From Escherichia coli (GTDB lineage: Bacteria > Pseudomonadota > Gammaproteobacteria > Enterobacterales > Enterobacteriaceae), in NCBI RefSeq assembly GCF_041248615.1, contig NZ_CP158426.1: DNA of 64,000 bases; one strand, given 5' to 3'. Position 1 is the stretch's first letter. Each line of letters begins with the position of its first letter. Under the pieces are notes generated by a model. The model worked only from the letters and a program-made list of their open reading frames with translations. It was not told the DNA's origin and ran no database searches. Shown here piece after piece: positions 31,370 through 36,837 of this stretch. The translations under genes were made by a program, and so were the position numbers.

Positions 31370-31664
31370 ATGCGTCTCCGGAAGTGGAATGCGGACGAAG
31401 TTATCATACCACTTTATTCATGGGTATGCCATTGTTCATATATAAATTCGGTGATTGAATTAATGTATTAAATTAATATTGTGAATATTTATAAATTCCT
31501 AAAAATTAAGTATCGTCATTGTGAAAGTTACTATATTTCAGTAAGTTAATTTCCCGCCTTTAAATTTAATATTAACTAAAAATGCTTTTTTATATTGACT
31601 TACAATAAGTCTACATTTCTAATGCGCTAACTTTCTGGAAACAATTTTGTAAGATCAAATTTAT

Positions 31665-32381
31665 ATGGTGGCGAAAATTAACTTCTTATCACGGCTTACG
31701 CCGCTTTTATTCGTGTTCGCTCCTTTTTTTGCACAGTCAAATATGACTGTTTACCCTATGGCTGTTTCCATTAATAGCCAGGGTGAAGGCAACGTTCGCG
31801 TTATATCTAAAAGTAATGAGGTTCAGTACATTAAGGCGACAGTATTCCGTATCGATAATCCATCGACGCCTCAGGAAAATGAAGTTGAGATTAAATCCGG
31901 TGATGCAAATCATCTGGTTGTTATGCCACCCAAATTCGCCTTACCAGCCGGTAGTAGCAAAACTGTGCGCTTTGTCGCGATGGAACCAGAGCAAAAAGAG
32001 AAAAACTATCGCGTTAAATTTGAAGCGGTTCCCAGTATTGATGACGCTGCCACGGATAAAAAAGATCTCTCTATGCAGTTAACCGTTAATTTAATTTGGG
32101 GGATTGTTGTTAGTGTTCCACCTCAGCAACCCATTGCCAGGTTAGAAGTAAACCCTGCCAAAAAATTATTAAATGCTGGGAATCAGCGTTTGAAAATTTT
32201 AACGATCGCTTATTGTAAAAATAATAGCAAAGATAATTGTAAGATACAGACCGTAAATAAAAACATCTTCCCTGGTCAGGAAAGAAATCTGGAAAGTATA
32301 TCTGGCTACGACAAAATCGTTGTCAAATATAATAACTGGATCACCAAAGATAATGGCGAGTTTGAACTGGCGGTCCATTAA
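31665..32381 (+). CDS. Class 5 (alternate chaperone-usher) fimbrial periplasmic chaperone, CooB/CfaA-like
   Basis: 238 aa ORF with signal peptide; first gene of a chaperone-pilin-usher-adhesin array whose sizes and order match cooBACD/cfaABCE; AT-rich. Confidence 0.8.
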   Translation: MVAKINFLSRLTPLLFVFAPFFAQSNMTVYPMAVSINSQGEGNVRVISKSNEVQYIKATVFRIDNPSTPQENEVEIKSGDANHLVVMPPKFALPAGSSKTVRFVAMEPEQKEKNYRVKFEAVPSIDDAATDKKDLSMQLTVNLIWGIVVSVPPQQPIARLEVNPAKKLLNAGNQRLKILTIAYCKNNSKDNCKIQTVNKNIFPGQERNLESISGYDKIVVKYNNWITKDNGEFELAVH

Positions 32382-32410
32382 TTATCATTGTAATAAACGA
32401 AGGAATAGTA

Positions 32411-32911
32411 ATGAAAAAGGTATTTGCAAAATCTCTTCTGGTTGCCGCGATGTTGTCTGTTGCTGGCTCTGCGTTAGCAGTACAAAAAGATATCACTGTA
32501 ACGGCTAACGTTGATGCCGCTCTGGATATGACACAGACCGATAACACCGCACTGCCAAAAGCAGTCGAAATGCAATATCTGCCGGGTCAGGGTCTGCAAT
32601 CTTACCAGTTAATGACCAAAATCTGGTCTAACGATGTTACCAAAGATGTAAAAATGCAGTTAGTTTCCCCGGCGCAACTGGTTCAAAGCCTGGATGCTAC
32701 CAAGATTGTTCCGCTGACAATAACCTGGGGTGGCGAAGAAATTAAAGCTGATGCGGCAACCACGTTTACCGCAACCAAAATCTTTGCTTCCGATGCGTTA
32801 ACTAACGGTTCTCTGGCTAAAAATCTGATGTTTGCGCAAACCACCAAAGGTGTTCTGGAAACAGGTATCTACCGTGGCGTAGTAAGCATTTATCTGTCCC
32901 AGGATATCTAA
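32411..32911 (+). CDS. Class 5 fimbrial major pilin, CooA/CfaB-like
   Basis: 166 aa ORF; signal peptide ending ALA; mature N-terminus VQKDITVTANVD resembles the CfaB N-terminus (VEKNITVTASVD) as I recall it; AAGGAA Shine-Dalgarno. Confidence 0.85.
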   Translation: MKKVFAKSLLVAAMLSVAGSALAVQKDITVTANVDAALDMTQTDNTALPKAVEMQYLPGQGLQSYQLMTKIWSNDVTKDVKMQLVSPAQLVQSLDATKIVPLTITWGGEEIKADAATTFTATKIFASDALTNGSLAKNLMFAQTTKGVLETGIYRGVVSIYLSQDI

Positions 32912-32937
32912 TCCGGATAACAGAATTAACACGTAAC

Positions 32938-35686: not shown

Positions 35687-36762
35687 GAAATCGATTGATT
35701 GCCGTGATTTTATGTCTATTTGGCATGGTTGCAGGTGTTCAGGCAGCGCCCAATGTAACAGCTGAAATTACTTATGATTTGGCTGTAGGTAGGGCGGATT
35801 ATTACTTCTGGAATAGAGAAGATCCACCCGGAGTAAATACGTATATGTGGTATCAATGCGCTTATAACAATTTACAGCAGACATGTACTAACTCTGGCAA
35901 TGTAACGACAGTACAAATTTATATGACAGAGCAACGAAGCGGGATGCGTTGGCCAGTCAAGCTTAAGGGATATCAAACGGTTTTAACTTCAGCTTCTGGC
36001 TCTGGTAATTGTACTGGGTATAACAGACAACGCCCCTTAAATGACAGTGGCGGACGTTCTTGTCAGGATGAAACTGGTTGGCATGATGCCAACAGGAAAC
36101 AGCTCACACTCTACATCGAACAGGCGGAAATGAAAAAGTTGCCAATTGGTGGCGTGTGGAAAGGGTCGGTATTCTTACATTTAAATAGCCCATCACAGGA
36201 CTATACCGCAGATATCACCCTGAACACTCTCGATCCGAACCATATCGATGTGTTCTTCCCGGAGTTCGCCCACGCTACGCCACGAGTGCAGTTAGACTTG
36301 CATCCAACAGGAAGCGTTAACGGCAGCAACTACGCGCAAGATCTGACCATGTTGGACATGTGTCTGTACGATGGCTTTAACGGTAATGCTATCAGTTATG
36401 AAATCATGCTCAAAGATGAAGGACGACCCGCCGCAGGGCGCAGAGACGGTTACTTCTCTATCTATCGTCAGGGAGGAACCACCACTGACGAGGGAGAACG
36501 CATTGATTACCGTGTCAAAATGTACAACCCGGAAACCGGTGGGCAAATTGATGTGCGCAATAATGAAAATATGGTCTGGACCAGCATTAATCTGAAACGT
36601 GTGCGTCCGGTCGTGTTGCCAGGCATTCGTTACGCTGTGATGTGTGTACCTACACCTTTGACTCTGGCAGTCGATAAATTCAGCGTGATGGACAAACAGG
36701 CGGGATATTATATGGGTAAATTGTCGGTCATCTTTACCCCGTCATTGCCGACAATCAATTGA
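35683..36762 (+). CDS. Class 5 fimbrial minor/tip adhesin subunit, CooD/CfaE-like
   Basis: 359 aa ORF with signal peptide; strong Shine-Dalgarno AAGGGAGG; start overlaps the usher stop by 4 nt; last gene of the array. Confidence 0.75.
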   Translation: MRNRLIAVILCLFGMVAGVQAAPNVTAEITYDLAVGRADYYFWNREDPPGVNTYMWYQCAYNNLQQTCTNSGNVTTVQIYMTEQRSGMRWPVKLKGYQTVLTSASGSGNCTGYNRQRPLNDSGGRSCQDETGWHDANRKQLTLYIEQAEMKKLPIGGVWKGSVFLHLNSPSQDYTADITLNTLDPNHIDVFFPEFAHATPRVQLDLHPTGSVNGSNYAQDLTMLDMCLYDGFNGNAISYEIMLKDEGRPAAGRRDGYFSIYRQGGTTTDEGERIDYRVKMYNPETGGQIDVRNNENMVWTSINLKRVRPVVLPGIRYAVMCVPTPLTLAVDKFSVMDKQAGYYMGKLSVIFTPSLPTIN

Positions 36763-36790
36763 CCTCGCAGACCAGAAAAAACCAAACAAC

Positions 36791-36814
36791 GAAGCCGCCT
36801 GAACAGGCGGCTTC
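36791..36814 (-). terminator. Rho-independent terminator downstream of exuT
   Basis: Stem gaagccgcc-tgaaca-ggcggcttc with the T-run on the minus strand; lies 28 nt from the fimbrial adhesin stop codon. Confidence 0.6.
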
Positions 36815-36837
36815 GTCATTACAACTTACGTTAAGCG

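Follow-up and report, generated by a model that had tools for sequence, protein, structure and literature searches.

The closest described systems to the locus reported here are the pili CFA/I (cfaABCE) and CS1 (cooBACD), the former encoded on an insertion sequence (IS)-flanked virulence plasmid beside toxin genes, and the chromosomal alpha-clade operons for Tcf of Salmonella Typhi (tcfABCD) and the cable pili of Burkholderia cenocepacia (cblBACD). Within Escherichia coli, Oshima et al. (2008) listed an operon called "CS1-like" in strain SE11 (ECSE_3375-3378) and also in E24377A, HS, ATCC 8739, 536 and SMS-3-5, the operon being absent from MG1655, Sakai, CFT073 and UTI89 (PMC2608844). Archer et al. 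(2011) named the genes of E. coli W eafABCD ("E. coli alpha-type fimbria"), located them "between exuT and exuR", stated that the cluster has no tip-adhesin gene and judged it unlikely to function (PMC3032704). The operon has been called typical of phylogroup B1 (PMC4552563) and was surveyed by polymerase chain reaction (PCR) in uropathogenic E. coli (PMC8249706); later papers cite Wurpel et al. (2013) for the name "CS1-like", a term that does not occur in the text of that article. We analysed a window of E. coli DNA (the whole stretch of 64,000 nucleotides from contig NZ_CP158426.1) that carries the four eaf genes at the same exuT-exuR locus and in the same order as strains W and SE11. Thus the locus is already known; a preliminary description of this DNA had held that it deserves characterisation. 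The window differs from the common eaf in its rare allele and its divergent EafD. With high confidence we read eaf as a chromosomal "CS1-like" alpha-clade pilus operon of Escherichia that forms an old presence/absence polymorphism and has a hotspot of diversity in the adhesin domain of its tip protein.

Four intact co-directional open reading frames lie on the forward strand between exuR and exuT (Table 1). The preliminary description had read them as chaperone, pilin, usher and tip protein with signal peptides, and this holds: the frames encode 238, 166, 894 (900) and 359 amino acids, the longer usher resulting from an alternative in-frame ATG at 32984, and direct reading of each protein shows a signal-peptide-like N-terminal segment, e.g. 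EafB with ...AGSALA ahead of VQKDITVTANVD. Over the locus region there is a 100% match to NZ_OW967178.1, the complete genome of an isolate obtained from a human in Madrid; in that record the NCBI labels are "fimbria/pilus periplasmic chaperone" and "CS1 type fimbrial major subunit" for eafA and eafB, "TcfC E-set like domain-containing protein" and "CfaE/CblD family pilus tip adhesin" for eafC and eafD. The suggested kinship with CfaABCE and CooBACD was borne out, and homology to Tcf and Cbl was seen as well, by Pfam, NCBIfam or PDB matches for all four proteins. EafA matched NCBIfam TcfA (E-value 1.7e-40), the CfaA structures 4y2o (2.4e-32) and 4ncd (5.6e-36) in the PDB and Pfam PapD_N. EafB matched Pfam Fimbrial_CS1 (1.8e-22), the structures of CfaB, CS17 and CooA in the PDB and the NCBIfam families CblA and TcfB. 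Its mature N-terminus VQKDITVTANVD resembles that of CfaB from a CFA/I plasmid, ...SASA followed by VEKNITVTASVD, so that the N-terminal extension is conserved; the preliminary description gave the CfaB N-terminus exactly, and the pilin is, as also supposed there, well diverged over its length (39% identity to CfaB). The segment VQKDITVTANVD is the presumed donor strand of EafB. EafC matched Pfam Usher_TcfC (4.5e-58), TcfC E-set (2e-20) and CooC_C (1.3e-4) as well as NCBIfam TcfC (2.5e-165); in tblastn it was 29-30% identical to the ushers CfaC, CsdC and CsuC across 95% of its length, and among solved usher structures no sequence match to EafC was obtained. EafD matched Pfam CblD (7.9e-99) and, in phmmer, CfaE of the PDB (1.3e-27) over residues 59-358, which cover both domains. 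An AlphaFold model of EafD with 52 homologues in the alignment had a mean predicted local distance difference test score (pLDDT) of 80, and its strong Foldseek matches were all CfaE structures (including 2hb0; template modelling score 0.71-0.72, E-value 5e-23). EafD thus models as a two-domain CfaE-like adhesin.

A CooC/TcfC-type usher, the order chaperone-pilin-usher-tip, a CS1-type pilin and a CfaE/CblD-type tip protein are all present. These are the defining features of the alpha clade that can be examined in silico, and as judged by its sequences eaf is an alpha-clade (alternate) chaperone-usher operon sensu Nuccio and Baumler. By analogy to CFA/I and CS1, all four Eaf products would be exported by Sec. 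In the periplasm the chaperone EafA would cap the EafD and EafB subunits; EafD would bind the usher EafC, start the assembly and end at the pilus tip, while EafB would polymerise below it by donor-strand exchange with its N-terminal strand VQKDITVTANVD.

The eaf operon is like those of CFA/I and CS1 in gene order, protein families, pilin donor strand and two-domain tip fold. However, the identities to CFA/I are low (38% to CfaA, 39% to CfaB, 29% to CfaC, 30% between EafD and CfaE), eaf resides in a spacer of the core genome rather than on a virulence plasmid, and it lacks both a neighbouring Rns/CfaD gene and counterparts of the CfaE arginines R67, R181 and R182. The designation as a class 5 (CS1/CFA-I-like) operon in the preliminary description therefore stands for the alpha-clade kinship and the gene order, not for membership in the class 5 colonisation factors of enterotoxigenic E. 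coli (ETEC) in the strict sense (5a-5c, Anantha et al. 2004): the identity of 29-39% to CFA/I, the lack of a plasmid copy and the missing arginines led us to reject it. All four proteins had their best NCBIfam matches in Tcf and cable pili. The bit scores were far under the curated equivalog cut-offs (TcfA 139 of 500, CblA 114 of 225, TcfB 94 of 384, TcfC 552 of 1428, TcfD 106 of 589), and eaf was rejected as an equivalog of Tcf of Salmonella or Cbl of Burkholderia. Compared with a cbl-like operon of Burkholderia stagnalis, the identities from EafA to EafD were 34, 40, 34 and 29%. The nearest relatives outside Escherichia are chromosomal four-gene operons of Klebsiella and Kluyvera and a copy in Salmonella enterica, with 50% identity for A, 61-62% for B, 53-55% for C and 41-45% for D. 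On these identities, with no tree built, eaf stands within the alpha clade as an enterobacterial branch of its own, neither strict ETEC class 5 nor Tcf/Cbl.

The full-length EafD proteins of Escherichia in the protein database fell into 19 clusters at 90% identity, and 17 of these clusters entered the domain statistics. Over the adhesin domain (Table 1) the median pairwise identity of the 17 alleles was 60% (range 51-81%) with 31% invariant columns, compared with 93% and 77% in the pilin domain (residues 185-359). For a gene-by-gene comparison the window was set beside three E. coli loci, L003 of the common class (~92%) and L004 and L005 of the ~86% class. In sliding windows the nucleotide identity fell to 50-60% at positions 35850-36100 in every pair compared. 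This drop was seen even between L004 and L005, which are elsewhere ~100% identical, so that the domain is swapped by recombination in a cassette-like manner. The proportion of synonymous differences (pS) in the adhesin domain was ~0.7-0.9 and hence saturated, and the ratio of the nonsynonymous proportion to it (pN/pS) was 0.64 in the hypervariable core, so that the ratio of nonsynonymous to synonymous substitution rates (dN/dS) cannot decide on positive selection there. Earlier accounts of eaf apparently do not mention a hypervariable, recombining adhesin domain in EafD.

EafD may instead serve as an assembly initiator only, with any binding exerted through EafB and the variability due to immune or phage pressure or to relaxed constraint rather than to a switch of receptor. 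We hold this for improbable, although of the alternatives it survives best. In CFA/I, the residues R67, R181 and R182 of CfaE are implicated in receptor binding, and R181 of CfaE/CooD is reportedly required for adherence. In all 17 EafD alleles these positions align to gaps. Without a counterpart of the arginines, a CFA/I-like receptor mode is unlikely for EafD; the gaps also fit a protein that is no adhesin, as do the pN/pS below 1 in the hypervariable core, the claim of Archer et al. that a tip adhesin is missing, and the Pfam family name "CblD-like pilus biogenesis initiator". Against an initiator alone stands the full two-domain CfaE architecture predicted for EafD, including the N-terminal adhesin domain, whose cysteine pairs and framework are conserved across the 52 homologues. 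Moreover, in CFA/I and CS1 one protein is both initiator and adhesin. The reading of EafD as a tip adhesin with a variable domain is thus preferred.

The divergence of the alleles concerns the whole operon. Nucleotide differences between eaf alleles amounted to up to 20%, with synonymous sites saturated or nearly so; the synonymous rate dS was 0.2-1.7 in eafA, 0.3-0.5 in eafC and 1-2 in eafD, compared with 0.07-0.17 in exuT and 0.17-0.25 in exuR. The divergence of eaf within E. coli equals or exceeds that between E. coli and E. albertii, which together with the wide occurrence points to an ancient resident locus. dN/dS between alleles was 0.03-0.15 (0.05-0.08 for eafA), and such low values over a very long divergence indicate sustained selection for function: the eaf alleles are very old and under purifying selection. 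The operon is a mosaic in which the nearest relative differs from gene to gene. L003 shares 93-95% of the nucleotides with the window over eafA, eafB and eafC, and the EafD proteins of L003, L004 and L005 are 76-82% identical to that of the window; EafB was 91-98% identical to that of the window in the comparisons made. Among 5426 complete E. coli genomes, 5 carry the window allele at an identity of at least 99%, 1673 are at 90-95% and 238 at 80-90%. The dS of exuR is about twice that of exuT, and exuR itself is at least 99% identical to the window in only 5 of the 5426 genomes, which looks like hitch-hiking of old haplotypes on the promoter side of eaf.

That the operon is a decaying, non-functional fimbrial remnant on its way to a pseudogene is very improbable. 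In 65% of the genomes it is missing, by loss or from the outset, strain KOr024 (NZ_CP147099.1) has an IS3-family insertion in the usher gene, a truncated EafD of 210 amino acids is widespread in Shigella boydii records, the -10 hexamer of the candidate promoter is weak and Archer et al. considered a function unlikely. However, the window and each further full locus in the comparison carry four intact genes, and nine of nine eafD DNA alleles examined were intact. Low dN/dS across the very long divergence argues likewise against decay, the promoter hexamers are conserved, and usher and pilin transcripts were detected in Shiga toxin-producing E. coli, with higher levels in strains associated with hemolytic uremic syndrome (PMC6033998). 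A functional operon maintained by selection is therefore favoured over a remnant.

The operon was present in 1919 of the 5426 complete E. coli genomes (35%), at the same site and always in the chromosome, while 3504 (65%) have a contiguous empty spacer of the K-12 type. Occupied and empty sites account for essentially all 5422 genomes with both flanks; the site is binary, and alternative cargo in the exuR-exuT spacer was rejected. None of the 1924 places in the E. coli genome collection was on a plasmid. The 353-kb record NZ_MG591698.1, deposited as an E. coli "plasmid", alone matched closely among the listed records of plasmids; it was rejected as a plasmid copy, as it carries yqjA-exuR-eafABCD-exuT-uxaC in chromosomal order (194536-205235) and is probably a mislabelled chromosomal fragment. 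Outside E. coli proper, eaf occupied the same site in one E. albertii genome with flanks 90-94% identical to the window, and in Escherichia sp. E4742, Escherichia sp. MOD1-EC7003 and two divergent lineages named "E. coli" with flanks of 93-96%. A 5741-bp contig of a metagenome-assembled "Lachnospiraceae bacterium" (SFGN01000125.1) carries the exuR-eafABCD-exuT locus with an usher 95% identical; it is almost certainly an Escherichia binning contaminant.

In K-12 MG1655, exuT and exuR are adjacent with a spacing of 129 bp and no gene inside, as the preliminary description had stated. The alignment of four empty with four occupied sites placed the left junction behind ATACCACTTT (31417), where the similarity to the empty site stops, and the right end near the eafD stop codon (36762). 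Two haplotypes exist for the exuR leader and the exuT terminator tail, one in all four occupied and the other in all four empty genomes, the latter being nearly identical to each other; the leader differs markedly between them. Two distinct flank haplotypes indicate that the occupied and empty states are old and do not arise from recurrent precise excision. The segment was also correctly described as AT-rich, with 44.2% guanine plus cytosine (GC) in 31418-36762 versus 50.7% in the remaining window, and 39-47% GC at third codon positions in the eaf genes versus 58-65% in the flanking genes. No transposase, integrase or IS gene adjoins the operon in the annotation of the 64-kb window, in agreement with the earlier statement, and the k-mer comparison revealed no direct or inverted repeat of at least 7 nucleotides common to both segment ends. 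A cassette of foreign composition would have come into the exuR-exuT spacer ahead of the Escherichia radiation or in its course; it now segregates as presence or absence, with allele lineages deeply diverged and recombining. The preliminary description had instead proposed a strain-specific insertion of ~5.4 kb, and a recent horizontal arrival of an ETEC-type class 5 operon in the sugar-acid locus, for which the absence from K-12, the AT-richness relative to the flanks and the mere 5 genomes with the exact allele at 99% or more might speak, is scarcely credible in view of the same site in 35% of the complete E. coli genomes, in E. albertii and in other Escherichia lineages, allele differences of up to 20% with saturated synonymous sites, the lack of IS, integrase, target-site duplication and inverted repeats, and only 29-39% identity to CFA/I with no true plasmid copy. 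K-12 has the empty site; instead of a recent insertion, eaf is an ancient, widespread resident locus of Escherichia that is polymorphic for presence and absence.

Related cassettes in other genera occupy other sites. The Klebsiella, Kluyvera and Salmonella operons share the gene order of eaf and likewise lack a linked regulator; those of Klebsiella and Kluyvera are located between lysR and ygeA instead of exuR and exuT, and the relatives of Kluyvera intermedia and Klebsiella lie near oligogalacturonide transporter and pectate-lyase genes. Further cassettes were found between gyrA and rcsC in Yokenella, between metK and galP in Rahnella and beside an integrase in Serratia. A coupling to hexuronate or pectin catabolism as a rule was rejected, since the Yokenella, Serratia, Rahnella and Salmonella relatives are not near such genes; with sites varying across the genera, the position at hexuronate genes in Escherichia is probably incidental. 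The closest Salmonella relative, in Salmonella enterica (Logan SRR8192883, 320-13412), whose usher is 55% identical, is adjoined by two resolvase genes and a Tn3-family transposase, a context which suggests that such cassettes can travel on transposons or plasmids. In Rahnella aquatilis (CP042357.1, 6815-10392) three tandem genes of the CfaE/CblD type (366, 381 and 386 amino acids) follow the usher, and then a second chaperone-sized gene; this operon may encode a pilus with several alternative tip adhesins.

The intergenic region between exuR and eafA (295 bp upstream of eafA) has a GC content of 27%. Transcription of eaf would probably start from TTGACT-17-TCTAAT in this very AT-rich region; no other promoter-like element ahead of eafA is strongly conserved. 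It escaped the consensus scan, since its -10 hexamer has no A at position 2. Conserved blocks occur also in the deeply diverged alleles, e.g. TTGTGAATATT.ATA.ATTCCTAAAA at about 31478-31505. H-NS silences other horizontally acquired fimbrial operons, and the AT-richness suggests the same for the eaf upstream region. In the laboratory, eaf is probably silent or weakly expressed. Two conserved TGTGA motifs upstream of eafA lack a convincing second half-site for CRP. A Pap-like switch by Dam methylation was considered and rejected, as reading of the upstream region revealed a single GATC. In the exuR leader, a probable ExuR operator (..GTTATCATACCACTTT) is a candidate whose assignment presumably follows the ExuR/UxuR palindrome. 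Downstream of the pilin gene, a terminator-like hairpin is a candidate attenuator that, by analogy, would raise the ratio of pilin to usher mRNA. The eafD gene converges on the terminator of exuT; the GC-rich core of this hairpin begins 28 nucleotides past the eafD stop codon, exactly the distance noted before, and in the empty haplotype the hairpin is kept with sequence differences and a 5-nucleotide indel. Rns/CfaD sites adjoin the -35 hexamer and have the consensus TATTTTTTTATC (PMC2579436). A coding-strand match at 9 of 12 positions, TGCTTTTTTATA (31583-31594), abuts the eaf -35 hexamer; it is not evidence for control by Rns, because the window holds 115 matches of equal quality. The 64-kb window holds no rns-like gene, and eaf lacks a linked regulator gene.

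The PCR primers published for the CS1-like operon (PMC8249706) lie inside eafC at 34364-34382 (1 mismatch) and 35099-35118 (2 mismatches). Their span of 755 bp reproduces the published product and so ties the literature name to the eaf locus. They match exactly in L004, L005 and L009, the allele of the metagenomic contig, and have no exact match in L003, which represents the commonest allele class. PCR surveys may thus under-count carriers, given also the mismatches in the window allele.

Several points weigh against our reading of eaf as an old, functional pilus operon. The literature, searched for the gene names and "CS1-like", consists of inventory, PCR-survey and RNA sequencing mentions only, with no pili, adhesion, receptor or mutant phenotype for eaf; assembly and adhesion are inferred by homology to studied systems. 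Archer et al. claimed that a tip adhesin is missing, which is contradicted by the sequence and fold evidence for EafD. The candidate -10 hexamer lacks its key A, and no activator is known. Furthermore, with an outgroup that reaches E. albertii at most, eaf may be ancestral and later deleted, or inserted and spread between species by recombination.

The DNA around the operon, agaR to aer, belongs to the ordinary core chromosome of E. coli. No Rfam family was matched within 30000-39000. A homologue of yhaC (8430-9617, reverse strand) is annotated in NZ_OW967178.1 as a pseudogene with an internal stop.

Table 1. Positions of the eaf genes, their flanks and the associated elements in the window.
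Feature	Position	Strand	Basis or remark
exuR, repressor of the hexuronate regulon, left flanking core gene	30593..31369	-	ORF (open reading frame) and annotation of NZ_OW967178.1; identity to K-12 exuR 96.5% (nucleotides), 99.6% (amino acids)
exuR leader, last stretch alignable with the empty haplotype, left junction	31370..31417	-	4 empty and 4 occupied sites aligned
Sigma-70-like promoter towards exuR, ATGGCA-18-TATGAT, extended TG	31403..31432	-	consensus scan, pattern match only
Segment absent from K-12-type genomes (eaf regulatory region and eafABCD), 5345 bp	31418..36762	+	junction alignment
eaf upstream regulatory region, very AT-rich	31418..31664	+	alignment of seven alleles
Candidate eaf promoter, TTGACT-17-TCTAAT	31595..31623	+	invariant in 7 of 7 aligned alleles; surroundings ~70% conserved
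eafA, periplasmic chaperone of the alternate (CfaA/TcfA) type, 238 amino acids	31665..32381	+	
eafB, major pilin, 166 amino acids	32411..32911	+	
Terminator-like hairpin after the pilin gene, 8-bp stem and T-rich tail	32939..32959	+	scan
eafC, outer-membrane usher of the TcfC/CooC type, 894 amino acids	33002..35686	+	start of the Prokaryotic Genome Annotation Pipeline (PGAP)
eafD, predicted two-domain CfaE/CblD-type tip adhesin and assembly initiator, 359 amino acids	35683..36762	+	start overlaps the eafC stop codon
EafD adhesin domain, residues 22-184	35746..36234	+	hypervariable between alleles, exchanged by recombination
Adhesin-domain core with the highest variability, residues 95-142	35965..36108	+	3 of 48 columns invariant; mean entropy 1.79 bits; median pN 0.49
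exuT intrinsic terminator, 16-bp stem and T-run, right junction	36785..36820	-	eafD converges on the terminator
exuT, hexuronate transporter, 432 amino acids, right flanking core gene	36838..38136	-	annotation of NZ_OW967178.1; 98.2% nucleotide identity to K-12

The operon itself is not new; it has stood in fimbrial inventories since 2008-2013, and the NCBI pipeline already labels its genes correctly. What changes is its history, from a strain-specific insertion to an ancient and widespread locus of Escherichia. The textbook pattern is a variable shaft pilin with a conserved tip adhesin, and the pattern proposed for Eaf is the reverse. As a tentative thought, to which we give little probability, the tip adhesin might be a trans-species balanced polymorphism, with at least 19 adhesin-domain types shuffled as a cassette between operons that are nearly identical in the rest, each type with its own host or glycan specificity. 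Eaf would then be a pilus for the choice of a commensal niche, and the types would be maintained across E. coli, E. albertii and other Escherichia lineages. From the sequences, the adhesin domain of EafD is among the most polymorphic stretches in the region, whereas the shaft pilin is conserved; with this combination, Eaf may reasonably be considered for a part in host- or niche-specific adhesion of commensal and B1-type E. coli.

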